A stretch of DNA of 59,283 nt, counting the filler. It is 7 parts of 7 records of this genome, joined end to end, with 100 filler letters (N's around TTAATTAATTAA, not from the genome) between each part and the next. Parts side by side here need not be neighbours in the genome. Positions count along the whole stretch, not along the records: positions 1 to 12,697 come from SRR31156797_53751; 6 more parts are not named here. The stretch is one strand, 5' to 3'. The notes under the pieces are model-generated. The model saw only the letters and a program-made list of their open reading frames with translations. It was not told the origin of the DNA and made no database searches. How positions within the stretch are numbered: position 1 is the first letter of the stretch; each line of letters opens with the position of its first letter. The translations under genes and the position numbers were made by a program. Shown piece by piece: positions 1 to 50,782 of the stretch.

Positions 1-831
1 CATCTGGTTCATGGAGACGGTGCCCCATTTCCTGAGCAGGATCTTGTAGAGCAGGCCGTCCTGGGTGAGAACCGTGGGCATGATCCGCATGAGGGCGCCC
101 ACCGGGGCGGTCAGGGGGCCGGGGATAAAGGGGGGCTGGAACTGGACCCAGCTGTTGCAGATCCGGCTGAGGCGTTTGATCTCGTCCCGGTTGTGGGGAA
201 CGATCCGCTTGGTGCCGGCAAGGACCACGGCCTTGAGGCGTTTTGCGCCCATGACGGCGCCCAGGCCGCAGCGGGCGGCCATTCTGCCCCGGTCCGTGGA
301 GATGCCCGACATCAGGGAGCGGTTCTCCCCGGCGGGGCCGATGCAGGCCACCTTGGTGTTGGGCCGGTTTACGGTGTTGATGAGGGCGTTCTCCGTATCT
401 ACCGTGTCCTGGCCCCAGAAGGGGGCGGCGTCCCGGATCTCCCTGACATGGTCGTCGCAATAGAGGTAGACCGGTGTTTTGCTTTCGCCCGTGACAAAGA
501 TGCCGTCAAAGCCGCAGCGCTTGATGGCGGGGGAGAAGTGGCCGCCGCAGTTGGCCTCGCCCCAGGCCCCGGTGAGGGGGGACTTGCCCACCACCATCCA
601 GCGGCCGGTGAAGAGGCTGCCGGTGCCGGTGAGAAGGCCGGACATGAATCCCAGCATGTTGTCGGGTCCCAGGGGATCGGCATTGGCCGGAATCCGGTTG
701 TAGAGCATCCACGCCCCAAGGCCCATGCCCGACAGATAGGACTCGTAGACCGTGTCGGGGATGATCTCCTCCCGGATTTTGCGGGTTGTGAGATCCACCA
801 TGAGCACCTTACCCATATATCCTTTTTTCAT
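1..831 (-). CDS. aor: Aldehyde:ferredoxin oxidoreductase (W/Mo-pterin AOR family), N-terminal part, runs off window start
   Basis: Not in ORF track. Manual translation from ATG 831 (RBS GAGGA): MKKGYMGKVLMVDLTTRKIREE...ADPLGPDNMLGF...KSPLTGAWGEANCGGHFSP, typical AOR N-terminal motifs. Confidence 0.92.
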   Translation of the reverse strand, partial: MKKGYMGKVLMVDLTTRKIREEIIPDTVYESYLSGMGLGAWMLYNRIPANADPLGPDNMLGFMSGLLTGTGSLFTGRWMVVGKSPLTGAWGEANCGGHFSPAIKRCGFDGIFVTGESKTPVYLYCDDHVREIRDAAPFWGQDTVDTENALINTVNRPNTKVACIGPAGENRSLMSGISTDRGRMAARCGLGAVMGAKRLKAVVLAGTKRIVPHNRDEIKRLSRICNSWVQFQPPFIPGPLTAPVGALMRIMPTVLTQDGLLYKILLRKWGTVSMNQM

Positions 832-856
832 AGGTTCCTCTCCGGAAGTTGTTTGT

Positions 857-2104
857 CTAACCTGTTTTGATTTTTGAGCGGTCCAGGGGCGTTCCGTCCC
901 AGGCGGCGGAAAGCACCATCATGCAGTCGTCGAAATCCAGGTCCTCGGGGTTGTAAAAGATGGTGCCGTCCCCCAGGGCCGTTGCCGCGATGGTTTCAAT
1001 GTCCGGGCCGGTTATGGCCTGGCGTCCCTGGGGATCCTTGACCTGGCTGAAGCAGGTAAAATGGCGTCCGTCCGTGGCGTCATACAGGTCCTGGTTCAGC
1101 TTGCGGATGGCGGCGATGGCGGCCGTGGCCCGGTCCCGGGGGCGGGTGGTGGCATAGGCTTCGCTGCCGGCCAGGGGAAAAAGCAGTTCCGCGACTTTCT
1201 CCTCGATCTTGTGCAGGTTGTACTCCAGGCCGTAGGGCAGGAGGATGGCCATGCAGGTGCCGTGGGGCACGTGGCAGACCGCCCCCACCGAGTGACCCAG
1301 GGTGTGGACCATGCCTACCGTTGAGTTGGAAAAGGCGATGCCGGCCAGGGTGGCGGCCGTTGCCAGGGCCAGGCGGCCTTCCCGGTCGTCCGGCTGCTTG
1401 ACCACGTTCACCAGATGGGTGCGGATCAGCTCGATGGCCTCCAGGGCGTGGGCGTCGCTCAGGGGGTTCTTGGACAGGCAGGTGTAGGCCTCCACCGCAT
1501 GGGCCATGGCGTCCATGGCCGTTGCCGCGGTGATATGGGGGGGCAGGGTCAGGGTCATCCGGGGGTCGACCACGGCGGCGTCCGGCAGCAGAAACGGGGA
1601 CCCAAAGAGCATTTTTCGCTTTGCTTCATGGTCGGCGATCACGGCGGCGACGGTGACCTCGGAGCCGGTGCCCGCAGTGGTGGGAACGGCGATCAGGGGC
1701 TTGAGCTTCTTTTTCAGGGCATTGGCCCCGGTGAAGGCCATGAGATCGTCGGAGTCTTCGGAGACGAGGATGTTGACGCCCTTGGCCGTGTCCAGGACGG
1801 AACCGCCGCCCACGGCGATGATGGCGTCGCATTTGTGCTCCCGGTAGACCGAGGCCAGGCGGTTCACCACCTTGACGTCGGAATCGGGGGGCACATCGTC
1901 CTCCACCGTTCCCGGGGTGATGCCGCCCTCCATGGCCGTTATCACGGTATCCACAAGCCCGGCTCCGCTCACGCCCTTGTCCGTGATGATCAGGGGCGTT
2001 CGGGAACCCATGTCCGAGAGCAGCGCCGGTATCCGCTCCAGGGTCCCATGGCCCGCGACTGTTTTCACTCCGCAGCAGAATTCATAGTATTCAGGTACGT
2101 ACAT
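857..2104 (-). CDS. Iron-containing (type III) alcohol dehydrogenase
   Basis: GGGSVLDTAK and PTTAGTGSEVT motifs; metal ligands intact (DAMAH, HTLGH, VPHG). Confidence 0.95.
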   Translation of the reverse strand: MYVPEYYEFCCGVKTVAGHGTLERIPALLSDMGSRTPLIITDKGVSGAGLVDTVITAMEGGITPGTVEDDVPPDSDVKVVNRLASVYREHKCDAIIAVGGGSVLDTAKGVNILVSEDSDDLMAFTGANALKKKLKPLIAVPTTAGTGSEVTVAAVIADHEAKRKMLFGSPFLLPDAAVVDPRMTLTLPPHITAATAMDAMAHAVEAYTCLSKNPLSDAHALEAIELIRTHLVNVVKQPDDREGRLALATAATLAGIAFSNSTVGMVHTLGHSVGAVCHVPHGTCMAILLPYGLEYNLHKIEEKVAELLFPLAGSEAYATTRPRDRATAAIAAIRKLNQDLYDATDGRHFTCFSQVKDPQGRQAITGPDIETIAATALGDGTIFYNPEDLDFDDCMMVLSAAWDGTPLDRSKIKTG

Positions 2105-3287
2105 GGCGGTCTCCTTTTTTCATGGGGGTTCCGGAATGGGCATGGGCCAGGATGGCCATGGGGCAATCCGTGGTCATCCGCTCCAGGGTGCTGCGGCTGA
2201 TGCCGGCATCGTCAAGGGTTCTGGGGATGGCGGTGTCGGAGCGCCGGAACAGGCCGTTGATCAGCTGCCGCAGGATCGATAGAACATGGTCGAACCGCTG
2301 TTCTTCGGGGGTTGCGCAGTAGCGGTCCAGGCCGGCCAGGGGCAGGAGCAGGCGTTCCATGGTTTCCGGGGCGTTGCCGGACCGGTACTCGAGCACGGCG
2401 GGCAGGAGAACACCCATGAGGACGCCGGGATTGACCGAGGAAAACTCCCCAAGGGTGCGGCCCATGGTCACCGTGATCAGGTCATCGCAGTTGGAGAACA
2501 CATAGCCGGAGATGGCGGCCGCCATTGAAAGTTTGGCAAAGGCCTTTTCATTGGTTGACCCCCTGGAGAAAAACCGTTTTTGCCTTGCGGGGGTGAAAAA
2601 GGGCTCAAGGCAGGCCTCGAGGTTCTCCATGATAAGGGAGATGGCCGTGGCCGCATAGGACCGGATTAGGGGATTGGCCGTGGTCCCGTGGGCCTCCGTG
2701 CAGCAGGCCAGGGCGGCCAGGGCTTCGCCGGCCACCGCTTCCAGGGAGTCCCGGGCCATGAGCCGGGGATCGATCACCACCTTGTCCGGCATGAGAAAGG
2801 GCGACGAATAGGAGAGGGCGTCCAGGGCGGCCTCGCCTGCGGTTTCAAACCCGGAGCTGGTCCCCGAGGGGATGTAGATGAGGGGGTTGAGGTGTTTTTT
2901 GATCTTGCCGTTTCCCGCCAGGGTCCTGAGGTTGCCCTGGGGCTCGGAAACCGCGATGTTCAGCACCTTTGCCACATGGGCCACCCGGTGGGTGCCCAGG
3001 GCCAGGATGGCGTCAAACCCCTTGTTCTGGTAGAGGGTGGTGAGCTCCCGCACGGTATCGATGCCGGAGGTGCCGTTGATGGAGTCAACCACGCCCAGGG
3101 TCATGCCCGATTCCCGGAAGGCATTGACCACATGGTCGGTTCCCTTTCTTTGGGTGATGGATTTGCTGGTGATCACCAGGGGTTTTTGGGCACCCAGGGC
3201 CGTAAGATCCGCAGGGAGGTGCTCCAGGGCGATTTTTCCGAAGCCGGTGGTGCACCGGCACAAAAATTCAATACTCGCTGGGTTCAT
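2091..3287 (-). CDS. Iron-containing alcohol dehydrogenase homolog with degenerate NAD- and metal-binding motifs
   Basis: Probable start MNPASIEFLC at 3287 (upstream extension in ORF track overlaps the next gene). Colinear with the neighbouring ADH but key motifs are replaced. Confidence 0.85.
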   Translation of the reverse strand: MNPASIEFLCRCTTGFGKIALEHLPADLTALGAQKPLVITSKSITQRKGTDHVVNAFRESGMTLGVVDSINGTSGIDTVRELTTLYQNKGFDAILALGTHRVAHVAKVLNIAVSEPQGNLRTLAGNGKIKKHLNPLIYIPSGTSSGFETAGEAALDALSYSSPFLMPDKVVIDPRLMARDSLEAVAGEALAALACCTEAHGTTANPLIRSYAATAISLIMENLEACLEPFFTPARQKRFFSRGSTNEKAFAKLSMAAAISGYVFSNCDDLITVTMGRTLGEFSSVNPGVLMGVLLPAVLEYRSGNAPETMERLLLPLAGLDRYCATPEEQRFDHVLSILRQLINGLFRRSDTAIPRTLDDAGISRSTLERMTTDCPMAILAHAHSGTPMKKGDRHVRT

Positions 3288-3304
3288 TCTCTTTGGGCTC
3301 CTTT

Positions 3305-3835
3305 TTAGTAACCGATGAGGGTCCGTGCGTTGACCAGGATGCGGTCGATGACATGCCGTTTCAGGGACCAGCGCGGATATCGCTTGATGGCGAGTTTGGC
3401 GATGAACTTGGGCAGCAGGTAGACCTGGACGATATCCAGGATCCTGACCACGGCACAGGCATGGGGCACATCGCCCTCCACAAAGAGGCGGCTCCGGGCG
3501 TTTGAAACCGGGGTGCTCTCCTGGAAGGTGAACAGCAGGAACAGGGCCTCGACGCTCTTGAGGGTCATCCAGAGGTCGATGGTCTTGTCCTTGACGGTGT
3601 GGCCCAGGTACTTGACCCGGCCGGCGTCGTCCTTTCCCACCACCATCCAGGGGCCGTTGGGAAAGGCGCCCAGGGCAAAGGAATACCCGTTGGGCAGCTC
3701 CTCGAACTCCTGCTTCACCCGTTTGTCCACCCGGGCCGATGCCTGGACCGCCCTGCCCACAAACCAGAGCATTAAGTTCAGGTAGATTCGCTTCAGGGGT
3801 TGCCCTTTGGGCGTGATTTCGACAAAATCCTCCAT
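3305..3835 (-). CDS. Hypothetical protein, possible SCP2/sterol-carrier-like fold
   Basis: 176 aa with RBS GAGGAGG; first gene of the ADH/AOR operon. SCP2-like pattern (RLFVEGD) is an inference. Confidence 0.7.
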   Translation of the reverse strand: MEDFVEITPKGQPLKRIYLNLMLWFVGRAVQASARVDKRVKQEFEELPNGYSFALGAFPNGPWMVVGKDDAGRVKYLGHTVKDKTIDLWMTLKSVEALFLLFTFQESTPVSNARSRLFVEGDVPHACAVVRILDIVQVYLLPKFIAKLAIKRYPRWSLKRHVIDRILVNARTLIGY

Positions 3836-3941
3836 TGCAGCCTCCTCTGTATTTGGATGAACTAACTATTGGTTCCGCTTGCCCTAGGATTGTTTTACAG
3901 CATCCGGGTCGCAACGCCGTGATCGGCCAGGTGACTGAATG

Positions 3942-3970
3942 AGAATAGAAATATCTTTGTGCAATGTCAA
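3942..3970 (-). promoter_or_regulatory. Sigma70-type promoter for the SCP2-like/ADH/ADH/AOR operon
   Basis: Minus strand TTGACA-N17-TATTCT about 105 nt upstream of ATG 3835. Confidence 0.6.
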
Positions 3971-4324
3971 GTCTAAAGAATGATGACTGTTTTTTTGTCG
4001 GGAACACCGTTCTATCGTCACAAGGATTGCCTTGAAAGATAACTTTTTTTCCACAGTGCATGATGGAGAGCGTGCATATTCGGGCGCAATGGGCCGGACC
4101 ATACGGGTATTTTTATTCCATTTTGATTTAATGTTACTGTTTTATCCCCTCCCGTCATCTTGTGCATGATTCTTGCCTTTTTATTTTGAATATCTGGTTT
4201 TTGACGCTGTTTCATCTCGAGCCGTAACGAAACAGCGTTTCTTGCATCATGACAATGGGTGATTTTATGAGTTGTTATGGTGCATTGGTTTTTTAACCAT
4301 TACCAAAAATAAGGAGGATGGAAA

Positions 4325-4885
4325 TTGAAGAACAAATTATTAATATTGTGCGTGTTTTTAGTTATGATTGTTTTCGGTTTTTTATCGACTGCCGGAGCGG
4401 TATCATTTTCAGGGGAGTATATGTTTACCGTGATTAAGTTTAAGAATGACAAACCTGCGAAAATGAGGAAGATGGAAAACCGGGCGGAAAGGTGGTTTTT
4501 TAAAAAAGGGATTTCCCGGGACGTTGATTTTGAATTTAACTCTAAAGTTGACGCGCCGGCTACTTCGGCCTCCGGAATGACGGTGACATATTACCGCGGG
4601 AAGAAGACAGGGGAATGGACAACCGATGTCCCCATCGAGTTTTATACGGTCAAGGGAAGCAGGCAGTTTGCGCTTTACTGGCTTGAAAGGGGGGCTCAAT
4701 GGGGCCTCTGGAGCACTGAACATTTAAAAAACAGGAGGGGAAAGCAGCCGAAAATATCCCACCTGTCCGGCTGGAATCCTGTTGCTCCCAAGCCTCTCCC
4801 TACCCCCGAGCCTTCTACCGTGGTCCTTCTTGGACTCGGCGTCATGGGACTTGTGGGCGTGGGCAGGAAGACGCTTCGTAAATAA
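4325..4885 (+). CDS. PEP-CTERM sorting domain-containing secreted protein
   Basis: TTG start after AAGGAGG; signal peptide; C-terminal PTPEPSTVVLLGLGVMGLVGVGRKTLRK (PEP motif, TM helix, basic tail). Confidence 0.9.
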   Translation: MKNKLLILCVFLVMIVFGFLSTAGAVSFSGEYMFTVIKFKNDKPAKMRKMENRAERWFFKKGISRDVDFEFNSKVDAPATSASGMTVTYYRGKKTGEWTTDVPIEFYTVKGSRQFALYWLERGAQWGLWSTEHLKNRRGKQPKISHLSGWNPVAPKPLPTPEPSTVVLLGLGVMGLVGVGRKTLRK

Positions 4886-4907
4886 TATTGGATCATTTAA
4901 GTGAGTC

Positions 4908-4950
4908 GTGACCTGCGGTGGAAATCCCTCCACCGCAGGTCACTTTTTTT
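4908..4950 (+). terminator. Intrinsic terminator between convergent PEP-CTERM and TonB receptor genes
   Basis: Perfect 15-bp stem GTGACCTGCGGTGGA/TCCACCGCAGGTCAC followed by T7. Confidence 0.85.
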
Positions 4951-4963
4951 ATGGGCTGAACGT

Positions 4964-7024
4964 TTAAAAGGCCAGGGTGCCGGAGATGCCGGCGGTCACG
5001 CCGGGCATGTCATACCCGTAGCGAAGCTGGTAATCCCGGTCGGTGACGTTGTTCACGTACCCCTTGAGGATGAACTCGCAGTCCCGGGGCAGCTTGAACC
5101 TATGTTCCGCGCCGATGTTGACGATGGTCACGTCATCCATGCGGTCGTCCTGCTTGGAGTAGCGGCGGCCCATGTAGTTGGCGTTGAGCTCCACCACCCC
5201 GTTTTCCCACAGCTTGTAGGCAAGGCCCAGCACCACCCGGTTCTTGGGCTGGTTCTGGAGCAGGTAGTGGGTCTCCTCGGTGTCCATGGGATGGCTGTCG
5301 GCATCCCAGTCCTGGAAGGTGTAGGATAGATATCCGCTCAAGTCGTTCCGGAAGTTCCGGGACAGCTCAAGCTCCAGGCCGTATACCACCATGTCGATGT
5401 TGTAGACAAGGGCTGCGGGCTCTGCCTGGATATAGTTGTGCTGCTGGTAATCGGTTATGTCCTGGTAAAACGCGGCGGCCCTGAACTTGGTGTCCTTCAC
5501 GATCTCCTTGACGCCGCCTATTTCATATGTCCATGAGGTTTCTGTTTTTAAATCGGGATTTGCCTTTGCGTACTCTTCGTTGGACCCGGCCCGGGCCCAT
5601 CTCCAGATGTCTCAGACTCAGGGGAGACGCATTTCACGGCTCACCGCCGCATAGAGGGCAAGGGTGTCATCCACACGATAGTCCAGCCGTGCCTTGGGGC
5701 ACCACTCCTCTTCCTTTCTCCGGTCTTTTTCCAGGGGGGTGGTCCCGAACACAAAGGAATCGCTCTCAAATTTGTACCACCGGGTGCCAAAGGTGAGGGT
5801 GAGCTTGGGGTTCAGGGTCCAGACATCCTGGAGATAGAGGGAGGTGATGGAATAAAAATCCTTGTTGTCCGTGGTGCCCTGGTCCCGGTAGTCCCCCCCG
5901 GCGGAAAGGGCGTGGTTTGGAAACAGGTCCACATCCAGGTAATCCAGGGAAAGGCCGCCGGTGTACTCCTTCTTGTAATTGCTGGTGTCGGAGCCATCGG
6001 CGAGATGGGCATACCGGGTGCGCTCGGAGATCTCCTTGTAGGCCATTGCCCGCACCACCCCCAGGCTCAGGGGCTGTTCAAAGAGCAGGCTCTGGGAGAG
6101 GTACTCCTTGTCCCATTCGCTCCTGCCGCCGTCATAGCATTTGCCCTCGAAGTCATGGGTGAAGGTGTCGATCTCGTCTTTTCGCACGATGGGATAGTCG
6201 GGATCGTAGTTGGAGGCGGGATCGTCCGGATCGTTGATCACCGCATACCCGGTCACGGTGTCGATATATTCGGCCCCATAGGTCAGGGTGCCGTTGGTGG
6301 GCAGGTAGAGGGAGATCCTGCCGGCGACATTATCGGTGTCATAGTCGTTGCCCCGCAGGTAACCGTCTCCCTCCCGGTGGCCGGCGGCAAAGGAGTAGCC
6401 GATGGTGTTGAAGGCGCCGCCGTTGACATTGGCGCTGTAACTCTGGTCTCCGTAAGCGCCCATGCCCACCTTGACCGATCCGTTGGGCCGTGGGTCATCG
6501 GTCTGTCTGCCTTTTTTGGTGATGATGTTGATGGCGCCGCCCATGGAAAAGGGGTAGAGCAGGGAGTGACTGCCCCGGATCACCTCGATGGTGTCCACGT
6601 TGTCGATGGGCAGGGTGGTCCAGTCCATCTTGAAATAGCCGTGGCTGCCATGGAGCCGCATGGGGCGGCCATCCATGAACACCTGGTACCGGGACTGGTC
6701 CATGCCCCGGATATAGACCCCCTCGGACTGGCTGGGGGTGGAAGAGGAGCGAAGCACGTTCACTCCCAGGGCCTGGTCCAGAAGATCCGTGATGTTCTCG
6801 ATCTTGCCCGGTTTTTTGAACTGATCCACATTGATCACCGTTACTTCGGGTGTCACCACCATGGATTCTTCCCGTAACGGATGATCCCGTACAATGACCT
6901 TGTCCAGTCGATAGGTTGATTGTTCCGTGTCCGGATCAACCCCGGCAAGGGCCTGGAACGGTATGGCACCGAGTAACAGGCATCCTGCGACAATGACAAG
7001 GCAGATGGTTTTAATGGCTCTCAC
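4964..7024 (-). CDS. TonB-dependent outer-membrane receptor (about 686 aa) with two in-frame TGA codons; probable selenoprotein (UxU)
   Basis: GTG start after AAGGAG; signal peptide; plug motifs (YIRG, IEVIRG, GGAINIITKK). ORFs 5618..7075 and 4964..5500 are in the same frame, joined by RLP-TGA-V-TGA-DIWRWARAGSNEEYAKANPDLKTETSWTYEIG. C-terminal Phe present. Confidence 0.88.
5581..5599 (-). promoter_or_regulatory. Candidate bacterial SECIS hairpin
   Basis: UGGGCCCG-GGC-CGGGUCCA: 8-bp stem with G at first loop position, starting after a 12-nt spacer following the second TGA (5612-5614). Confidence 0.7.
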
Positions 7025-7216
7025 AATACACATCTCCTTTCTCAAGTTAAAAGCATAGAATTCAAGGGTTGCCACATAAGAGAAAGGGTCCGGACAGGCC
7101 TTGTCCCGTCAGGGCGGGGGCGTTTATCCCCGCCACGCGATTGACGGCCCAAAGGCGCTGTGGTATTGGACAGAAGAATCCCCCCTTATCAAGGAGGGGC
7201 CATGGGGGAAGCAGCG

Positions 7217-7279
7217 TCAGTACTTTAGCGGGTGCCGGCTGCTTTCCCCAGCTCTTTCCTCTCTCTGTTTTTCATTCAC
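7217..7279 (-). CDS. Putative leader peptide/uORF (20 aa; 51 aa to TAA at 7124 if TGA is read through)
   Basis: Full SD AAGGAGGTGA (7290-7299) 10 nt before GTG; MNEKQREERAGESSRHPLKY-TGA-RC... Confidence 0.3.
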   Translation of the reverse strand: MNEKQREERAGESSRHPLKY

Positions 7280-7315
7280 TTCCTGTTTATCACCTCCTTG
7301 CAACGGGATTTACAC

Positions 7316-7369
7316 AAAAAAAAAGCCACAAAGACAACTCACCCGTTTTCGGGTGAAGGCCTTCATGGC
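7316..7369 (-). terminator. Terminator/attenuator hairpin in the TonB receptor leader
   Basis: GCCATGAAGGC..TCACCCG-AAAA-CGGGTGA..GTCTTTGTGGC followed by a T run; no same-strand gene lies upstream for it to terminate. Confidence 0.7.
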
Positions 7370-7663
7370 ATGATTCCAGGGTATTGCTCGATTTTTGCTT
7401 TACTACACATGCAACTTCTTGTCGCAATTCACGTTTCCTCTTACTAGGTTACCGCATTTGTGTCAACAGATAATTCGTGATTATCCGTTTGATAAGGGGG
7501 GAAAAAAGTGTTAAAGAAAATAGATCCTTTTTGCTCATTTCTTTTTAACATATTGCAGTGGCGAAAGTGGCAACGAGACCATGGTTCCCGGCATTGGGAC
7601 GTCCCCTGTTACGCATTCCCCAATCCAGGGCGAACCGACAATTCAAAATCAGGGAGGTTTGGA

Positions 7664-8776
7664 ATGCAGATCGATTTCCATCACGCAGTAACTTATGTTG
7701 CAGCACGGCTGGCACGGTTTTCAGTGGAGGATGCCAATCTTATCAGCTATTCGGCCCAGTATGTGGACGACGCGGTGAATTCGGGGACCATCCGATTCCG
7801 GAACAAGGCCATGTACAGCCGGATCAGTTCGGCCCACAAGATGCTGGATTACCGGAATTTTGAGGAGCTGGCCAACCATTTCACCTGGGTGCCCTTCCAT
7901 TTTCTGCCGGGCAACGGCGGAAAACAGGCGGGTGACAGCCCTGCCGGCGGTTTTGTCAACAAGCTGGTCTGTACCCCGGATTCACCCGTGGCAAAGGAAA
8001 TGGTGAACTCCTGCATCGCCTGCCATGACATGGATTACGGGTTGCACCGGCTGGGAATCACCATGCATGTGCTGGCGGACACCTTTGCCCACCAGGGATT
8101 TGCCGGCATCAATCACGAAATCAATGAGGTGGAAGACCTGGAGAAAGAGGACGGCGATCCCAGAAGTCTTATCGGGAAACTGGCGGACTATTTTGGTGAT
8201 GTTTTTGATACGGTGAAGAACAAGGTGGTCAGTGACGCCTTTCCCCTGGGCCATGGCGGCGCCCTGACCTGTCCGGACCTGCCCTTCCTGAAATGGAAGT
8301 ATAAAAATGGGGCAGGGAAGCCGGTGGTGCGGGATAACACGAAAATTTTCATGGATGCCGTTGAGAGAATCCATGAAGCCATGGTTTGCTTTCGGGAGAA
8401 GGATCCCGATTACATCCTGAAGGCGGAGGACCGGATCTCCCCCCGGGACCTGGCCAAGATCCGGGAGAATTTCCTCGATTTTGAAGATGAGGAGGGGGAA
8501 GACCGGCACAGGAAATGGGTGGATTCCATTGCAAACGGCGATTTCAGTTTTGCTGAAAAGGGCCAGGAAACCCTGTCCTATGTTCACAAGGGCATCAATT
8601 CCTGGAAGCATGAGGCCCTGGATACGAAAAAGGAAGTGGAAACAAAAAACGAGCTGTTCCGATTCTCCCCTGAATTCCTCGACAGTGACTGGAAGCAGTT
8701 CCACGACGCCCTGCAGATCCATCGGATCGATATCATCAGGAACATTCTCCCGAAATACGGCATCTGCGTGGCGTGA
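7664..8776 (+). CDS. Hypothetical protein, DUF6765-like, possible Zn-dependent phospholipase C/nuclease-like fold
   Basis: ATG 7664 after GGGAGG; MQIDFHHAVTYVAARLA, SAQYVDD, WVPFHFLPG, HRLGITMHVLADTFAHQGF. Family assignment from recall, not searched. Confidence 0.7.
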   Translation: MQIDFHHAVTYVAARLARFSVEDANLISYSAQYVDDAVNSGTIRFRNKAMYSRISSAHKMLDYRNFEELANHFTWVPFHFLPGNGGKQAGDSPAGGFVNKLVCTPDSPVAKEMVNSCIACHDMDYGLHRLGITMHVLADTFAHQGFAGINHEINEVEDLEKEDGDPRSLIGKLADYFGDVFDTVKNKVVSDAFPLGHGGALTCPDLPFLKWKYKNGAGKPVVRDNTKIFMDAVERIHEAMVCFREKDPDYILKAEDRISPRDLAKIRENFLDFEDEEGEDRHRKWVDSIANGDFSFAEKGQETLSYVHKGINSWKHEALDTKKEVETKNELFRFSPEFLDSDWKQFHDALQIHRIDIIRNILPKYGICVA

Positions 8777-8874
8777 CCCCATGGGCGACTAGAGCGTTTT
8801 ACCCGCAATATCCGGAAACACGGACGCTCTATTTCTCCCGGGGTTTAACTTTTTTTGCGGAAAAGAGGTGTGGC

Positions 8875-11343
8875 ATGTACGAAAAGACAGATGAAGTAAG
8901 AGACCAACTCAAGGCGTATACCCCCGGAAACATGAAAGAGAAGCTTCCGCTTCTGGACACCCTGCTGGGACTTCACCGTACTGAGAAAGCCGCCGTTGAT
9001 ATTGAAAGGGCCTGGCATATGACGGCCCATTTTAAGGAAACCGAAGATCGGGAGATCCCCATGCCGGTGAGAAGGGCCCAGGCCGTCAGCCGGTATCTCT
9101 CCCGGCGAAATATCTATTTTCATGACGACAACATGCTGGGGGGGGCCACCACCGATAAAGCCCTGGGTGCACCCCTGTATCCCGAGTTCTTCGGGTTGAG
9201 CATCTGGCCGGAGCTGGGCACGATCAGCACCCGGAAAGACAATCCTCAGTTCCTCAGCAGGGAAGATGCCGATCGTCTCAATTTCGAGGTGTTTCCCTAT
9301 TGGATGGAAAGATCCATATCCGAGGAGGTCCGAAAGGTGGACCCCTACCGGCAGGCGCTGCTGGAAAAGATGATCATCTATACCGTCTCCAAGGCCGCCA
9401 CCATTTCCCATACCACCCCCTGTTATGAGCTGGTCCTTCAGAAAGGGATCAAGGGCATCCTGGAAGAGGCCATTCAAAAGCAGGCGGAACACGGGGATGA
9501 CGATGAAAAGGCTGTTTTTTATCACTCTGTCCGGATCGCCATGCAGGGCATTCTGGATTATGCCGCTAATATCGCAAGGAAAGCGGCCCAAAAGGCGGAT
9601 GAAGAGACGGACCCGGAACGGAAAAAGAATTTCCGGCGCATTGCCGAAAGCTGTGAACGGGTGCCGGCCCACCCGGCAACGACCTATCATGAAGCCGTGA
9701 ATTCCCTGTGGATCTGCCAGGTCGCCGTGTTTGCGGAAAACTCCAACATGGCCATCAACCCCGGTCGCCTGGATCAGATCCTGTACCCCTATTTTATCCG
9801 GGAGTATGAATCCGGCGCCCTTTCCATCGAGGAGGCGTTGAATATCACCGGGTCCCTGTGGTTCAAGATCGCCGATAATGTGAACCTTGTGCCGGAAGCC
9901 GCGGAACGGCTGTTCGGAGGGGCGGGGGCTGTGCCCGCTGTCACCCTTGGCGGTGTGGACAGGGACGGCAACGATGCGGTCAATGAACTGACCTATCTTT
10001 TACTGAAAATCACGGAGCTGCTGCCCATCCGGGATCCCAATGTGAATGCCCGGTTTCACCCGGAAAAGAATCCCGTTGAATATCGCAATGAGGTGAGCCG
10101 GGTGATCCTGACCAACAAGGCGATACCCGCTTTTTTCAATGATGTCGAGAACATCAAAACCCTTGTCAACCAGGGGGAAACCCTGGCCCATGCCCGGGAC
10201 TATGCCGTGATCGGCTGTGTGGAGCTGGGCAGCCCGGGCAGGGATTACAGCGCCAGTTCCTCCATATTCATGATGATGTACACCATCCTTTACATGGCGC
10301 TCCATAACGGCCGTACCCTGGTGACAGGGGACTCGCCCCTCTGGAAGGCCACGGGCGATCCTGGAGACTTTACCGATTTTCAGCAGTTCTGGGCGGCCTA
10401 TGCCGAGCAGACACGGCTCATGGCGGAAAATGCGGTTGTCCTGAACAATACCTATGGCGAAAAGCACCAGGCGTTCCTGCCCACCCCGTTGTTGTCCGCC
10501 ATGTTCAAGGGCCCCATGGACAAGGGCAAAGACCTGATTGACGGCGGGGCGGTGTATAATTCTTCCGGGGTGACCCATATCGGTTTTTCCGATGTGTGCG
10601 ATTCCCTCTGCGCCATCAAGGATATCTGTTTCAATGAAGACAACACCGATATGCGCCTCACCCTTCCGGAGCTTGTGCAGGCGGTGGACAATGATTTCAA
10701 GGGGCATGAAAAGCTTGCCGCATACCTGAAAAACAAGGCGCCCAAGTACGGCACCGACCATCCCGTTGCCGTTGATATCTCCCAAAGATTGATTGAACTG
10801 GGATATGAGGTGTTCAACGGCCGGGAGAATTATCGCGGCGGCAATTACCGGGTCGCCTACTGGACCATGACCAACCATGCCGGGTACGGCAAAGTGACCG
10901 GGGCCCTGCCCAGCGGCAGAAAAGCCCATGTGCCGTTCTCAAGCGGCATCACCCCGGCGTCCCAGATCGACACCCCGTTGACAACGAGCCTGGATGCCGT
11001 TGCCGCCCTGAACAGCAAGCAGACCCCCGGGGCCTATGCCCTGAACATGAAATTTTCCCCCGTGACGTGTTCCCCGGAAAATGCGGACCGGTTCGGAAGC
11101 ATGGTTCAAGCCTATATGAACAACGGCGGCCAGCAGGTCCAGTTCAACATTCAGGATTATGAGACCTTGAAAGAGGCCAGGGATGACCCCGGCAGTCACC
11201 CCCACCTGCTGGTGAGGGTGTCCGGGTATTCCGCCTATTTCAAATCATTGAACCGGGCGATGCAGGACGAGCTGATCACGCGAAGCCAGTACAACCTGTC
11301 TTCCGGTGAATTTGTCCCCTTAATCATCCGGAAAGGAGTCTGA
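8875..11343 (+). CDS. Glycyl radical enzyme (PFL2/eliminase-like, substrate unknown)
   Basis: Cys loop YAVIGCVELG, Gly loop LLVRVSGYSAYF, GRLDQILYPY; ATG 8875 after GAGG. Confidence 0.93.
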   Translation: MYEKTDEVRDQLKAYTPGNMKEKLPLLDTLLGLHRTEKAAVDIERAWHMTAHFKETEDREIPMPVRRAQAVSRYLSRRNIYFHDDNMLGGATTDKALGAPLYPEFFGLSIWPELGTISTRKDNPQFLSREDADRLNFEVFPYWMERSISEEVRKVDPYRQALLEKMIIYTVSKAATISHTTPCYELVLQKGIKGILEEAIQKQAEHGDDDEKAVFYHSVRIAMQGILDYAANIARKAAQKADEETDPERKKNFRRIAESCERVPAHPATTYHEAVNSLWICQVAVFAENSNMAINPGRLDQILYPYFIREYESGALSIEEALNITGSLWFKIADNVNLVPEAAERLFGGAGAVPAVTLGGVDRDGNDAVNELTYLLLKITELLPIRDPNVNARFHPEKNPVEYRNEVSRVILTNKAIPAFFNDVENIKTLVNQGETLAHARDYAVIGCVELGSPGRDYSASSSIFMMMYTILYMALHNGRTLVTGDSPLWKATGDPGDFTDFQQFWAAYAEQTRLMAENAVVLNNTYGEKHQAFLPTPLLSAMFKGPMDKGKDLIDGGAVYNSSGVTHIGFSDVCDSLCAIKDICFNEDNTDMRLTLPELVQAVDNDFKGHEKLAAYLKNKAPKYGTDHPVAVDISQRLIELGYEVFNGRENYRGGNYRVAYWTMTNHAGYGKVTGALPSGRKAHVPFSSGITPASQIDTPLTTSLDAVAALNSKQTPGAYALNMKFSPVTCSPENADRFGSMVQAYMNNGGQQVQFNIQDYETLKEARDDPGSHPHLLVRVSGYSAYFKSLNRAMQDELITRSQYNLSSGEFVPLIIRKGV

Positions 11344-11344
11344 A

Positions 11345-11878
11345 ATGGATTTTGTAAAGTCAATTGAAGGGCTGTCGGGAAAGATGAGAGAATCGTTGAT
11401 TCAAAAAGAGCTGAAGGGGCTTAAGGCCGAGATAGAAACCGAAGTCGCCGGAGAAGCCCTGGATAAACTGCTCTATCTGCTGCTCAAGGCCATGGGCCTG
11501 CTGTTTATTGTGGATAAAGAGTATCGAAAGAACATCAAGGATTTTACCGCCACCTATGTGATCTGCAGCCAGGACAAAAAGATCGATGTCTCTGCCATAT
11601 TTAAAAAGATCAATGGGATATTTTCCGAAAAAGACGGCATGGAGGTCAAGGACACCATTGTTGAAAACCCTACCACCACCGTGACCTTCAGGGATGGCAA
11701 GGCAATGGCCGAGTTTCTGCTCTCCGGGAATCCCGATGTGATTGCCGGGATGCTCGACAACCAGTTGAGTGTGTCGGGCAATTTGAATTACCTGTTCAAG
11801 TTTGTCTACCTGCTGTGGCTCATCCCGGAATTGCTGGGAATCAATGATTTCAAGGAGCTGTTGAGTCATCAAACCTGA
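11345..11878 (+). CDS. Hypothetical protein with SCP2-like C-terminal region
   Basis: Starts 1 nt after GRE stop; TVTFRDGKAMAEFLLSGNPDVIAGMLDNQLSVSGNL resembles the SCP2 C-terminus (inference). Confidence 0.7.
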   Translation: MDFVKSIEGLSGKMRESLIQKELKGLKAEIETEVAGEALDKLLYLLLKAMGLLFIVDKEYRKNIKDFTATYVICSQDKKIDVSAIFKKINGIFSEKDGMEVKDTIVENPTTTVTFRDGKAMAEFLLSGNPDVIAGMLDNQLSVSGNLNYLFKFVYLLWLIPELLGINDFKELLSHQT

Positions 11879-11885
11879 CGTCACA

Positions 11886-12697
11886 ATGGAGATGCCGGAA
11901 CCACTGATTTTCGATATTGCCCGGGGATCTTTTGTTGACGGGCCGGGCATCAGGACCACGGTTTTTTTCAAGGGCTGTCCCCTGTCGTGTCCCTGGTGCC
12001 ATAATCCCGAATCCCAGGCTTACACCGCTGAAACCCTGTTTTTCCCGGAAGCGTGTATCCAATGCGGCAATTGTGACCAGGGCAAGGAGTGCTTCACCCT
12101 TGCCCGGCGCACCATCGGGAAACCCTTGCCACCGGAACAGTTGATCGAGATCCTCCTCCGGGACCGGGCCTATTATGAAAACTCCGGGGGCGGGGTGACC
12201 TTTTCCGGGGGGGAAGCCCTGGGCTTTCCCGGGTATCTCTCCCGGGTGATTCCGGCATTGAAGGCGGAAAAGATTCACGTTGCCGTTCAGACCTGCGGGT
12301 ATTTTGACTTCAACGCCCTGGACGCGACCATCCTGCCCCGGATCGATCTGTTCCACTTTGATCTCAAGATCATGGATGACGGGGACCATACCCGCCTGCT
12401 CGGCAAATCCAATCATATCATCCTTGAAAACTTCCGCCGGCTGCTTGACCAGGGGTGCCATGTGCAGCCTCGGATTCCCCTGATTCCCCGTTTTGTGGCC
12501 AACCGGAAAAACCTTGACGCCCTGGCCCGCTTTCTATCACAGCACCGGGTGGGCCGGTGCGAGTTCCTCTATTATAACCCCGCTGTCCGGGGAAAATTGA
12601 TCGGCCTCAATCGCGAACCGGTTGAGGGACTGCCTGAAGAACCGGTTCCCATGGCTGAGAACCGTGCCTGGATCGATTCCTTCAAGCAGCAGTTCAA
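11886..12697 (+). CDS. Glycyl-radical enzyme activating enzyme (radical SAM), truncated at contig end
   Basis: DGPGIRTTVFFKGCPLSCPWCHNPES, GGGVTFSGGE, ferredoxin-like insert CIQCGNC..C. Confidence 0.95.
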
Positions 12698-12797
12698 NNN
12701 NNNNNNNNNNNNNNNNNNNNNNNNNNNNNNNNNNNNNNNNNTTAATTAATTAANNNNNNNNNNNNNNNNNNNNNNNNNNNNNNNNNNNNNNNNNNNN
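12698..12797. other. Artificial contig spacer
   Basis: N44-TTAATTAATTAA-N44. Confidence 0.99.
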
Positions 12798-24837: not shown

Positions 24838-24937
24838 NNNNNNNNNNNNNNNNNNNNNNNNNNNNNNNNNNNNNNNNNNNNTTAATTAATTAANNNNNNN
24901 NNNNNNNNNNNNNNNNNNNNNNNNNNNNNNNNNNNNN
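24838..24937. other. Artificial contig spacer
   Basis: N44-TTAATTAATTAA-N44. Confidence 0.99.
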
Positions 24938-25726
24938 AAAATCGCTTCTCCTTCCATCATGAGCCGGGTTTTTCCCGATTATGTCAAAAACGGAGTGGAT
25001 ATGTCTTCCCTGGAAGGCGCGGCCCACATGATTTACAATCTTCCGAACCGTTTTGTGGAATACGTGTTGATGGACCTGCCAATTCCAGTAGGATTCTGGC
25101 GATCGGTGGGGTATACCATTAATGCCTTCACCGTGGAATCTTTCATGGATGAACTTGCCGTTGCCGCAGGCAAGGATCCGGTTGAATTTCGACTGGGGCT
25201 GCTAAAGAAAAATTCCCGGCCGCGTAGAATCCTGGAATTTTTGGCTGAAAAATCCGGCTGGGGCGGAACTGTTCCAAAAGGCCGCGGAAGAGGCGTCGCC
25301 GTGTGCACATCTTTTGGTTCTTCGGTCGCGCATACGGCTGAAGTTTCCGTGGACGAAAAAAGCGGCTCTGTTACCGTGCACAAAATTACCGGGGCCATAG
25401 ACTGCGGCCCGGCGGTATATCCGGACGCAATCAAGGCCCAATTTGAAGGCGCGGCGATTATGGCTTTGAGCGTCGCCTTCAAGGAGCGCATGAATTTTGA
25501 TGCCGGCGGCGTCTCGACCCTGAACTATGACGATTATCCGCTTTTGTCCATGACCGAAATCCCGGAAATAGAAGTGCACATCATGGAGACTCAAAACAAA
25601 ATTGGAGGGGTGGGCGAGCCTGGTTTTCCAACCGTCGCCCCGGCAACAGCCAATGCAATTTTCAATGCAACCGGGATCCGACTAAGAAATTTGCCCTTTG
25701 AAACGGAAAAACTGAAAAAGGCGTGA
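24938..25726 (+). CDS. Xanthine dehydrogenase family molybdopterin-binding subunit (IorB-like), C-terminal fragment
   Basis: WRSVG...ESFMDELA...DPVEFRL, GGVGEPG, ANAIFNATGIRLRNLP; frame open from contig start. Confidence 0.92.
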   Translation, partial: KIASPSIMSRVFPDYVKNGVDMSSLEGAAHMIYNLPNRFVEYVLMDLPIPVGFWRSVGYTINAFTVESFMDELAVAAGKDPVEFRLGLLKKNSRPRRILEFLAEKSGWGGTVPKGRGRGVAVCTSFGSSVAHTAEVSVDEKSGSVTVHKITGAIDCGPAVYPDAIKAQFEGAAIMALSVAFKERMNFDAGGVSTLNYDDYPLLSMTEIPEIEVHIMETQNKIGGVGEPGFPTVAPATANAIFNATGIRLRNLPFETEKLKKA

Positions 25727-29575: not shown

Positions 29576-30066
29576 TTATCGAACTTCTTTTAAATAACGA
29601 TCGCGGAAATTATCCTGCACGGCCGCCATTTTGGCGTAATCAATCGGTTTGGCCCGTTCATAATCGGAAGCCGGCAAAAATTTGGCCGCTGCTTCCTTGG
29701 ATAGGGCGGACGGACGAATGGGACGTAAAAAGGCATTGGCCCAGACGGCCTGTCCCTTGTCGGACATGATAAAGTCGAGGATCTTTTTCCCTTTTTCAGG
29801 ATTAGGACTGTTTTTGACCAGGCTCATTACGTACGGCACTACAATCGAACCTTCTTTCGGAATGACGAAAACCACGTTGGCCTTGTCCTTGTACTTGGCC
29901 CGGTATGCGTTGAAGTCATAATCGAAAAGAATGGGAATTTCTCCTGACAGCACCCTGGCGTATGAAGTCTGCTTCGGAACAATCGGGTCGTTTTTCTTGA
30001 GTTTTTTGAAAAACTCGATGCCCGGGGTCACATCATCCAGGCTGCCGCCCATGGCCAGGTTGGCGG
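29576..30066 (-). CDS. ABC transporter substrate-binding protein, C-terminal fragment
   Basis: GEIPI, FVIPKEGS, KKILDFIMSDKGQ; truncated at spacer. Confidence 0.88.
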
Positions 30067-30166
30067 NNNNNNNNNNNNNNNNNNNNNNNNNNNNNNNNNN
30101 NNNNNNNNNNTTAATTAATTAANNNNNNNNNNNNNNNNNNNNNNNNNNNNNNNNNNNNNNNNNNNN
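30067..30166. other. Artificial contig spacer
   Basis: N44-TTAATTAATTAA-N44. Confidence 0.99.
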
Positions 30167-35686: not shown

Positions 35687-35786
35687 NNNNNNNNNNNNNN
35701 NNNNNNNNNNNNNNNNNNNNNNNNNNNNNNTTAATTAATTAANNNNNNNNNNNNNNNNNNNNNNNNNNNNNNNNNNNNNNNNNNNN
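35687..35786. other. Artificial contig spacer
   Basis: N44-TTAATTAATTAA-N44. Confidence 0.99.
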
Positions 35787-44892: not shown

Positions 44893-45418
44893 ATGCGCGA
44901 AATAGTTATTTTAGGGGTGGGCATGACAAAATTCGGAGTGTCGCCCTTTACCATGAAAGAAATGTTTGTCCAGGCGGCCATGGAAGCCCTAAACGAATCC
45001 GGCGTGGAAGGCAGGGATATGGAAGCCCTGTTCATCGGCAACGTTCTGGGCGGATTCGAGGAAGGGCAAATAAACATCGCCCCGTTTTTGGGGAGCGAAA
45101 TCGGACTGCCCAACCACGCTCCCGCAACCAGGTTTGAAGGCGCCTGCGCATCGGCCACCGTGGCCATTCGACACGCCGCCCTGATGGTGGCTTCGGGCGT
45201 GCATGACATTGTTATGGCCGGCGGCGTGGAACGGACCACGGTCATGGGAACGCCCTTGGCCACCAAGACTTTTGCCATGGGCAGCCATTCCGAATACGAA
45301 AGCTTTGCCGGTATTACTTTCCCCGGCGTGTTCGGCATGGTCGCTCACCAATACGCGGCCAAGTATGAAATGCCGTTGAGCGACCTGAAAAGGTGCATGG
45401 CCCGCGTATCGGTCAAGA
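44893..45418 (+). CDS. Thiolase family protein (SCP-x-like), truncated
   Basis: GVGMTKFG, FEGACASAT, AGGVE. Confidence 0.9.
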
Positions 45419-45518
45419 NNNNNNNNNNNNNNNNNNNNNNNNNNNNNNNNNNNNNNNNNNNNTTAATTAATTAANNNNNNNNNNNNNNNNNNNNNNNNNN
45501 NNNNNNNNNNNNNNNNNN
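45419..45518. other. Artificial contig spacer
   Basis: N44-TTAATTAATTAA-N44. Confidence 0.99.
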
Positions 45519-50682: not shown

Positions 50683-50782
50683 NNNNNNNNNNNNNNNNNN
50701 NNNNNNNNNNNNNNNNNNNNNNNNNNTTAATTAATTAANNNNNNNNNNNNNNNNNNNNNNNNNNNNNNNNNNNNNNNNNNNN
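50683..50782. other. Artificial contig spacer
   Basis: N44-TTAATTAATTAA-N44. Confidence 0.99.

Follow-up and report, generated by a model that had tools for sequence, protein, structure and literature searches.

The Escherichia coli fdhF SECIS is a coding-region hairpin located just 3′ of the single UGA that it serves; its minimal upper stem-loop begins 11 nt after that UGA, the upper stem carries a bulged U17, the loop bears G23 and U24, and the loop G is essential (PMC8659212). The consensus model of bacterial SECIS elements set out in PMC13188914 (the bSECIS model) specifies i) a loop of 3 to 9 nt on an upper stem of 4 to 16 bp; ii) at least one G in loop positions 1 and 2, mostly in the form G[G|U]N; iii) a codon-to-loop spacing of 16 to 37 nt; and iv) a free energy of −7.5 kcal/mol or lower. 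Closely spaced selenocysteine (Sec) pairs (UxxU, UxxxxU) are on record for several bacterial families, and for the UXXU/CXXU hydrogenases a single SECIS has been proposed to serve both UGAs: a single SECIS is predicted behind the two close UGAs, this element is conserved in the CXXU relatives, and the additional UGA is on its 5′ side (PMC13582414, 2026). Among TonB-dependent receptors, NCBIfam distinguishes a PCPU motif-type (NF049947), a "CU" motif-type (NF049946) and a "FCYXU" motif-type (NF049945), the last of which was reported by deep-Sep in Desulfosarcina sp. BuS5; each has one Sec, placed in the same short motif after a conserved Arg-x-Pro. A fourth model, NF049944 (TonB-dependent receptor, PUIUD motif-type, equivalog), represents an NCBI-curated family with two selenocysteines, and it is to this family that the gene described here belongs, to judge from its sequence. 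No publication on the PUIUD motif-type was found among the 20 best-ranked of 110 matches in a literature search, which dealt with genome assemblies and bioinformatics tools and not with selenoproteins, and a 2026 review of the field does not mention NF049944.

The DNA analysed (the window) is a stretch of 59,283 nucleotides consisting of seven joined contigs, not a whole genome; the receptor gene lies on a 12.7-kb piece of it, at positions 4964..7033 of the minus strand, and is complete, with 689 codons and a TAA stop, provided that translation passes both in-frame TGAs. The ATG at 7033 agrees with the start of the gene at an orthologous locus (L001), while a GTG at 7075, further upstream, is the earliest possible start and the one used for numbering the window protein (P0001). 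Translation continues in frame through both TGAs to a C-terminal ...TLAF, and the plug and barrel domains span the TGAs (Pfam Plug, E = 4.5e-17; TonB_dep_Rec_b-barrel, E = 6.6e-41). The predicted protein has the architecture of a TonB-dependent receptor, with an N-terminal plug, a 22-strand β-barrel and a C-terminal aromatic residue (Phe); the AF2 model has 22 strands at a pLDDT of 89.3, and its best fold matches in the PDB are all TonB-dependent transporters. The TonB-dependent copper transporter OprC of Pseudomonas aeruginosa (PDB 6fok, 6z8q and others) has the same fold (TM-score about 0.71–0.77) and is also matched by sequence profile (E = 1e-38). Following the signal peptide of the window receptor is a DKVIVRD stretch which, by eye, resembles the TonB box consensus.

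NF049944 matches the window protein end to end (model positions 4–686 of 686) with 1268.2 bits against a cutoff of 850, whereas the scores for the three one-Sec models stay below their cutoffs (NF049947, 506.8 versus 800; NF049946, 412.1 versus 700; NF049945, 271 versus 825); these types have the same receptor fold. The two TGAs together give the motif ...RLP-U-V-U-DIW, a Pro-Sec-x-Sec-Asp in the same place as in NF049944, with Val where the family name has Ile. UGA1 is located at 5618..5620 on the minus strand (codon 486 in P0001 numbering, residue 472 when the ATG at 7033 is taken as the start) and UGA2 at 5612..5614 on the same strand (codon 488, residue 474), with a GUC (Val) codon between them at 5617–5615. 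Phylogenetically, the PUxU and PCPU clades are sisters (SH-aLRT 98). The PCPU type is represented at the DNA level by a gene of Desulfobacca sp. 4484_104 (L002), whose protein is 32% identical to that of the window and scores 1122.8 bits with NF049947 (cutoff 800); its motif reads Cys-Pro-UGA, so that it has no UGA1.

The candidate SECIS hairpin begins 12 nt after UGA2 and 18 nt after UGA1, at 5581..5599 of the minus strand. Behind the spacer GACAUCUGGAGA (5600..5611) comes the 5′ arm UGGGCCCG (5599–5592), then the loop GGC (5591–5589), and then the 3′ arm CGGGUCCA (5588–5581). A preliminary description of this DNA had reported UGA-GUC-UGA and, after a spacer of 12 nt, a hairpin of 8 bp whose loop begins with G, the loop starting about 21 nt after UGA2 and 27 nt after UGA1; the minus strand bears this out to the nucleotide, the loop starting at the 21st and 27th positions respectively. 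With regard to the bSECIS model, the hairpin conforms in all four respects for both UGAs: i) the loop is 3 nt and the stem 8 bp, one pair being G-U; ii) the first letter of the loop is G; iii) the loop is separated from UGA2 by 20 nt and from UGA1 by 26 nt; and iv) the hairpin evaluated alone has a free energy of −12.5 kcal/mol. The hairpin is identical in L001, and its counterpart in L002 (7 bp, 3-nt loop GUG, 20 nt from its UGA, −8.4 kcal/mol) also conforms. The earlier proposal of a SECIS-like structure is supported by this agreement and by the conservation of the UGAs in a curated two-selenocysteine family. Rfam at its gathering score gave no match in the window, L001 or L002 (Rfam may hold no bacterial SECIS model), and at E values up to 10 it gave four weak matches in 4800–7600, none of them over the UGA/hairpin region. 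Like the E. coli fdhF element, the window hairpin lies in a coding region just 3′ of a UGA, and the distance of 12 nt from UGA2 is close to the 11 nt of fdhF; it differs from the fdhF type in having no bulge, in its GGC loop, in its spacers of 12 and 18 nt, and in facing two UGAs rather than one, and the 18-nt spacer of UGA1, which exceeds the 11-nt spacer of fdhF (PMC8659212), counts against shared use.

How the two UGAs are read can be judged from their relatives. Gene callers give only a 470-aa N-terminal piece as the annotated product in 68 of 68 close homologs, as if the gene were a broken pseudogene, or coded for a product truncated at UGA1; we consider this, together with the idea that TGA is a sense codon genome-wide, to be highly improbable. 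The stop position is kept among these 68 homologs, which range from 32% to 90% identity: 57 of 75 homologs stop at the residue aligned with P485, just before UGA1 (55 Pro, one Ala, one Glu), and 11 terminate in "...RLPCP", with Cys at the first position and the stop at the position of UGA2, the other seven being full-length generic receptors of 23–30% identity. All three DNA sequences compared (window, L001 and L002) have TGA at these motif positions, UGA2 being TGA in both L001 and L002. The downstream frame is intact and completes the 22-strand barrel; in the comparison of the window with L001, dN/dS comes to 0.176 for the part before UGA1 and 0.129 for the part after UGA2, with no differences in the first 39 nt following UGA2. 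The portion after the UGAs is thus under purifying selection (dN/dS 0.13), and pseudogene decay and true termination are rejected on the basis of the conserved stop position, the intact downstream frame and the low dN/dS, in a family curated as selenoproteins. Genome-wide reassignment of TGA (codes 4 or 25) is rejected as well, since half of the window's long ORFs (25 of 50) end in TGA, the commonest stop there and therefore a normal stop in the source genome. On the evidence of conservation, both UGAs are in-frame sense codons that are translated through. The amino acid inserted could nonetheless be cysteine: with a working SECIS, one or both UGAs might be read by a SelB-dependent tRNA of the tRNA(ReC) type, giving Cys-x-Sec, Sec-x-Cys or Cys-x-Cys. 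According to PMC13582414, tRNA(ReC)-like tRNAs decode UGA as Cys given a downstream SECIS and are commoner in UXXU-motif genomes (about 56% versus about 2.3%; two of six Desulfobacterota), and in the PCPU sister clade the first position is a Cys encoded in the genome. Cys homologs do align with the Sec positions, as expected for a selenoprotein, at both places (the 11 PCPU-type matches and L002 at UGA1; the full-length relatives P0077, "PGCCD", and P0085, "PNCCD", at UGA2), but no full-length Cys-only close homolog appeared among the 68 relatives of at least 32% identity, which suggests that UGA has been retained for more than encoding Cys, and we regard Cys decoding as rather unlikely. A crude search of the window for TGAs lying in frame, with open sequence on either side, gave no other convincing selenoprotein gene; no tRNA genes were found in the window, and selA, selB and selD domains are absent from Pfam scans of 46 ORFs.

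A different doubt concerns the hairpin, which is GC-rich and might simply follow from the peptide encoded there (Trp-Ala-Arg-Ala-Gly-Ser), the true signal lying elsewhere or belonging to a non-canonical class; some bacterial SECIS do deviate from the consensus model (PMC13188914). Trp-Ala-Arg is conserved as protein in the window, L001, L002 and the homolog P0101, and this by itself fixes much of the 5′ arm. Folding of 5560–5625, as recommended in the preliminary description, returns the large hairpin in the minimum-free-energy structure, but this 66-nt segment does not stand out from its shuffles in stability (z = −0.09; 87 of 200 fold as well or better). Counting both strands of the window, 18 of 2004 TGA trinucleotides precede a model-conforming hairpin of −12.5 kcal/mol or lower, and without the two focal UGAs the figure is 16 of 2002, about 0.8%. 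The recommended covariation analysis covered three DNA sequences (window, L001 and L002), two of them identical in the hairpin: one pair is altered on both sides and one pair on one side, and pairing is kept in 23 of 24 cells. As many as 163 of 500 shuffles do equally well, so that the covariation is not significant. The by-product explanation fares less well when the peptide is held fixed and codons are drawn according to local usage: of 5000 draws made for the window, 2.4% attain −12.5 kcal/mol and 3.2% contain a same-geometry hairpin, the latter share being 0.44% among 5000 draws for L002. The hairpin of L002, a distant homolog, keeps the same register relative to the second UGA and the same 12-nt spacer length; where Gly is replaced by Ala, one pair has switched from C-G to G-C and so remains paired, and the loop keeps G followed by G or U, although the terminal U-A pair of the window stem is missing. 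Nor does the window offer any other hairpin of −7.5 kcal/mol or better within range of UGA1 or UGA2. Taken alone, the large hairpin is only weakly beyond chance; that it merely reflects coding we nevertheless think unlikely. Less likely again is a division of labor in which the large hairpin serves UGA2, and UGA1 depends on an alternative fold or on the smaller hairpin CAUC-UGGA-GAUG (5598..5609, minus strand). This smaller hairpin does exist, overlapping the large one and nearer the codons as had been noted; it lies nearer UGA1 and has a G at the second loop position, and L002, which is without UGA1, also has no counterpart of it (a single case). At −1.0 kcal/mol against the limit of −7.5, and at 12 nt from UGA1 (6 nt from UGA2) against a range of 16–37 nt, it fails as a second SECIS, and the suggestion of two alternative folds fails with it; because the two hairpins share 2 nt they cannot fully coexist, and since the small hairpin is identical in L001 that comparison provides no test of its conservation. 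It is probably not functional, and we hold a two-element arrangement to be very unlikely.

The DNA comparison was confined to three sequences: a search of genome contigs with generic plug motifs yielded 2 family members among the 80 loci listed, and tblastn found no further family DNA in plasmids. Two other structures were considered and set aside. A lower stem long enough to take in the UGA, like that of E. coli, can be drawn by eye for L002 (UGAGAC/GUCUCA), where it competes with the upper stem, and has no window counterpart; the 90-nt minimum-free-energy folds of window, L001 and L002 differ. A distal hairpin in L002 (UCCGGU-GUUAAG-ACCGGA, −9.2 kcal/mol) lies 44 nt after the UGA, which is out of range, has no equivalent in the window, and is taken as chance.

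The explanation we prefer, and consider probable, is that the hairpin at 5599–5581 is the bacterial SECIS of a TonB-dependent receptor encoding Pro-Sec-Val-Sec-Asp, and that this one hairpin is reused for both UGAs. We infer SelB binding, the insertion of Sec rather than Cys at each codon, and the reuse itself. In the general SelB pathway, SelB-GTP-Sec-tRNA(Sec) would dock on the G-first apical loop ahead of the ribosome; the SelB ternary complex is described as binding the SECIS before the ribosome arrives and as blocking RF2 (PMC5311926). The hairpin would begin 18 nt downstream with UGA1 in the A site and 12 nt downstream with UGA2 there, and could be used twice in succession because both codons fall in the 16–37 nt range of known bacterial SECIS elements; a second ternary complex would have to load while the intervening Val codon is being read. 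The hairpin is probably set for UGA2, the Sec position common to the PCPU and CU motif-types, and UGA1, lying upstream, would require no change to the hairpin.

The locus adds a clean example to a kind already known. Its value is that of a well-defined example and not of a discovery, because the family is already curated by NCBI and the single-SECIS idea has been published for the UXXU hydrogenases. The preliminary description was fair in speaking of an unusual decoding problem, but the problem is not new, Sec pairs being known and a single SECIS for two UGAs being in print for those hydrogenases. The two cases do differ: there are two codons between the UGAs of the hydrogenases and one codon in the window, and the UXXU hydrogenase is a metal-site enzyme of the cytoplasm or membrane whereas the window protein is an outer-membrane transporter. 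The receptor gene provides a compact natural test of whether one SECIS, a single docking site for SelB, can decode two UGAs six nucleotides apart, and the sister PCPU clade, whose hairpin keeps the register but follows a single UGA, is a ready-made control. In E. coli, altered UGA-SECIS spacing reduces efficiency, and the locus also bears on how much spacing slack SelB tolerates.

An extracellular loop of an outer-membrane transporter is an unusual place for Sec; redox explanations are least obvious there, and ligand or metal binding is more plausible. OprC, itself without Sec, is a precedent for a metal-importing TonB-dependent transporter, and binds metal through a Cys/Met/His site; a metal role for the U-x-U motif of the window protein may be taken as a lead only. 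One possible, though doubtful, elaboration is that the twice-used SECIS and the Sec-x-Sec at the base of extracellular loop 7 would create a selenolate site that captures, in sulfidic habitats, a thiophilic metal (possibly nickel or cobalt), an extracytoplasmic and non-redox use of Sec. Nickel or cobalt is suggested because a CbiM/NikL/CbiQ/ATPase transporter lies beside the receptor gene in L002. The neighbors of the window copy give no hint of the receptor's substrate; they encode a DUF6765 protein, a glycyl-radical enzyme with its activase, Fe-type alcohol dehydrogenases and a PEP-CTERM protein.

The minus-strand sequence is ...CGU CUC CCC UGA GUC UGA GAC AUC UGG AGA UGG GCC CGG GCC GGG UCC AAC..., and both UGAs (UGA1, 5620-5618; UGA2, 5614-5612) are in frame within a single long reading frame whose readthrough product ends ...GISGTLAF and has 703 residues when counted from 7075, the earliest possible start, or 689 when counted from the ATG at 7033, the position that agrees with the start of the ortholog. 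Its Pfam matches are a Plug domain (E = 4.5e-17) and, over residues 351-677, a TonB-dependent receptor barrel (E = 6.6e-41) whose match includes both UGAs; an AlphaFold2 model built on a 70-row alignment (mean pLDDT 89.3, pTM 0.87) has a plug and 22 strands, and the PDB structures it matches best are TonB-dependent transporters throughout (PqqU, PfeA, FhuE, YncD, BtuB, OprC, and FecA).

Several lines of evidence show the two UGAs to be sense codons of a conserved family. Specifically, i) a search of 5.8 billion proteins returned 75 matches, 57 of which (P0002-P0058, 51-90% identity), each of about 470 residues, terminate opposite Pro485, directly before UGA1 (last residue Pro in 55, Ala in 1, Glu in 1), while 11 (P0059-P0069, 32-37% identity) end "...RLPCP", where the first position is Cys and the second a stop, and 7 are full-length generic receptors (23-30% identity); no full-length Cys-only close homolog was among these 75; ii) a genome scan found 2 family loci among the 80 loci listed, one in Desulfobacterium sp. 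MAG9 (L001, 88% identity, motif codons CCC TGA GTG TGA GAC) and one in Desulfobacca sp. 4484_104 (L002, 32% identity, CCT TGC CCC TGA GAC), and in both the frame continues past the TGA into conserved receptor sequence; iii) for the window against L001, dN/dS is 0.176 upstream of UGA1 and 0.129 downstream of UGA2, so that the distal third of the gene is translated and constrained like the remainder; and iv) apart from this gene, TGA is the stop used most often in the window (25 of 50 long ORFs), which excludes a reassigned genetic code. An exhaustive profile-free search (9496 matches at E <= 0.001) added P0077 ("...HLPGCCD") and P0085 ("...YPNCCD"), relatives of full length whose second position is Cys, as well as truncated "...PGC" forms; ordinary receptors carry the familiar Arg-x-Pro-Thr-x-x-Glu-x-Tyr-Trp at this site. 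Since Cys occupies the first position in PCPU forms and the second in P0077 and P0085, Sec/Cys pairs exist at both. Elsewhere in the window protein, Cys459 ("...EWCPK...", strand 12; about 5699-5701, minus strand) is kept in nearly all PUxU-type homologs; the PCPU type has Tyr-Pro-Ser or Phe-Pro-Ser there, and a genomic Cys in the motif itself.

The family is already curated at NCBI, and the window gene is a further member of its two-Sec receptor class: the protein scores 1268.2 bits against NCBIfam NF049944 ("TonB-dependent receptor, PUIUD motif-type"; cutoff 850), and the L002 protein scores 1122.8 bits against NF049947 ("PCPU motif-type"; cutoff 800), with sister models for the CU (NF049946) and FCYXU (NF049945) types. 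Of the four motif-types, we found only FCYXU in print, as a Sec TonB-dependent receptor reported by deep-Sep in Desulfosarcina sp. BuS5 (PMC12013277); a full-text search for "PUIUD" gave, among the 20 matches listed of 110, genome-assembly and bioinformatics-tool papers and none on selenoproteins. A quick maximum-likelihood tree of 51 rows (P0059-P0069 in full, one in three of P0002-P0058, and 20 relatives from the 9496-match search), restricted to residues up to the motif and midpoint-rooted for drawing only, places 20 PUxU rows in one group and 12 PCPU rows in another (SH-aLRT 100 each), as sisters (SH-aLRT 98) with a CU/CC group next. The Sec before Asp is thus common to three motif-types, and the first Sec peculiar to the PUxU clade; sister clades cannot tell in which direction the first position changed between Cys and Sec.

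The preliminary description had proposed that UGA-GUC-UGA is followed, after a 12-nt spacer, by an 8-bp hairpin with a G-first loop, and had called for folding the reverse complement of 5560-5625. The hairpin is indeed present on the minus strand at 5599-5581 (UGGGCCCG / loop GGC / CGGGUCCA; 8 pairs including one G-U), 12 nt after UGA2 and with its loop 20 nt from UGA2 and 26 nt from UGA1, and it lies within the minimum-free-energy fold of that segment; on its own it evaluates to -12.5 kcal/mol. The consensus bacterial SECIS model, as given in a review (PMC13188914, Fig. 2 legend), calls for a stem of 4-16 bp topped by a loop of 3-9 nt, a G at loop position 1 or 2 (mostly G[G|U]N), a UGA-to-loop distance of 16-37 nt, and a free energy <= -7.5 kcal/mol; the large hairpin agrees on all four points, for UGA1 and UGA2 alike. 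It is thus a candidate SECIS that conforms to the model, in a receptor family already curated as two-Sec.

By itself the large hairpin is unremarkable: the 66-nt segment has z = -0.09 against shuffles, 87 of 200 of which fold at least as well, and a conforming hairpin of equal or greater stability follows 18 of the window's 2004 TGA trinucleotides, two of the 18 being the focal UGAs themselves. When the peptide was fixed and codons were redrawn from local usage (5000 draws), the same geometry (20 nt, 3-nt loop, at least 7 bp) arose in 3.2% of draws for the window and 0.44% for L002. The 39 nt after UGA2 show no differences between window and L001, a small sample, with dS elsewhere at 0.34-0.39. 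L002 has a hairpin (GGGCGCG / GUG / CGCGUCU, -8.4 kcal/mol) in a register identical to the window's (12-nt spacer, 20 nt to the loop), over a peptide Trp-Ala-Arg-Cys-Ala-Ser versus Trp-Ala-Arg-Ala-Gly-Ser in the window and at 32% protein identity; the Gly-to-Ala replacement, which changes the middle base of a 3′-arm codon from G to C, is compensated by a synonymous GCC-to-GCG change in the 5′ arm. In the alignment of window, L001, and L002, 23 of 24 cells pair, with one two-sided and one one-sided pair change, and the terminal pair is lost in L002. This covariation is suggestive rather than established, because the comparison has three sequences, of which two share the same hairpin, and 163 of 500 shuffles perform no worse. 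Taking all the evidence jointly, we consider it probable that the large hairpin is the SECIS of the receptor gene. L002 has a second hairpin at 7475-7492 (UCCGGU-GUUAAG-ACCGGA, -9.2 kcal/mol, loop starting GU), 44 nt after the UGA in codons for Asn-Pro-Val-Leu-Arg-Pro-Glu; as a SECIS it was rejected, being beyond the model's range and having no equivalent in the window.

How might two UGAs one codon apart be served? A smaller hairpin, CAUC-UGGA-GAUG, does exist at 5609-5598 (minus strand) as had been described, and could in principle have provided a second, alternative fold; at -1.0 kcal/mol it fails the consensus model on both energy and spacing, and we regard the two-fold scheme as very improbable. 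For a single element, the stem begins 12 nt from UGA2 and 18 nt from UGA1; the first of these spacings is nearly that of E. coli, whose minimal element is an upper stem-loop of 17 nt placed 11 nt downstream of the UGA (PMC8659212, PMC11431864). Since the one-Sec PCPU relative L002 keeps this register relative to its only UGA, the large hairpin is set for UGA2, with UGA1 upstream of the element. E. coli SECIS spacing mutants lose efficiency, so UGA1 decoding may be less efficient than that of UGA2. In the general pathway, SelB-GTP-Sec-tRNA binds the SECIS ahead of the ribosome, remains anchored by domain 4, and keeps RF2 off the UGA (PMC5311926); a first complex would deliver Sec at UGA1 with 6 nt of slack, and a second, loading on the still-folded hairpin during Val decoding, would then serve UGA2. 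Such sequential reuse is the simplest reading we can infer, and one hairpin is likely reused for both UGAs; the same single-SECIS argument is already published for UXXU and CXXU Group 4 hydrogenases (PMC13582414), with the warning that UGAs linked to a SECIS can be read as Cys by tRNA(ReC)-type tRNAs, which are overrepresented in UXXU-bearing genomes. Further close Sec pairs are tabulated (PMC13188914) as UxxU in Prx-like, metal-binding NF041115, and FmdB-family proteins and as UxxxxU in TsoB.

In the AlphaFold2 model, whose strands number 22 counted from both ends, strands 13 (472-482) and 14 are joined by a 30-residue stretch (483-512) that includes a short helix (487-496); residues 486 and 488 fall where this helix begins, 4-6 residues after strand 13 ends. 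Loops after odd strands of this fold are extracellular, so the stretch is predicted to be extracellular loop 7. A selenolate metal site at U-x-U is a lead rather than a finding; OprC, to judge from PDB entry titles, illustrates that the fold can import a metal ion. The L002 gene adjoins CbiM (279.5 bits, cutoff 173), a NikL-family subunit (189.8, cutoff 100), CbiQ (151.1, cutoff 111.8), and an ECF-type ATPase, together with two DUF4198 proteins and two tetrapyrrole-methylase-like proteins that fall below all curated cutoffs. This single locus is a nickel/cobalt uptake neighborhood and a possible substrate hint; we found none in the gene contexts of the window and L001. At this locus (L002 644-11302), the CbiM/NikL/CbiQ/ATPase nickel-cobalt ECF transporter that flanks the one-Sec PCPU-type receptor is divergent.

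In six identical linkers (44 N, TTAATTAATTAA, 44 N; 12698-12797, 24838-24937, 30067-30166, 35687-35786, 45419-45518, and 50683-50782), each of the six frames is interrupted by stop codons. The linkers mark the joins between the seven contigs that make up the window, and apparent synteny across them is not real. The receptor belongs to the first piece (12.7 kb), no gene past position 12,697 is its neighbor, and the lack of sel genes and tRNAs within the window is for this reason uninformative for the genome. Three fragments that abut linkers, the C-terminal end of a molybdopterin-binding subunit (24959-25726), the C-terminal half of a solute-binding protein (29576-30052), and the N-terminal half of a thiolase (44893-45474), are contig-end truncations rather than pseudogenes. 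Convergent with the receptor gene is a small secreted protein with a PEP-CTERM sorting signal (4325-4885, plus strand) and no NCBIfam match. A 656-aa ORF at 2091-4061 (minus strand) is an artefact, its Fe-type alcohol dehydrogenase match being limited to the last ~386 codons (2091-3251); its Pro/Gly/Arg-rich first part overlaps a better-looking 176-aa ORF in another frame (3305-3835). The first piece (1-12697) is collinear, inverted, with L001 1-14091, sharing two Fe-type alcohol dehydrogenase paralogs, a 176-aa ORF without family, the receptor, DUF6765, and a glycyl-radical enzyme with its radical-SAM activase; L001 extends further into an aldehyde:ferredoxin oxidoreductase.
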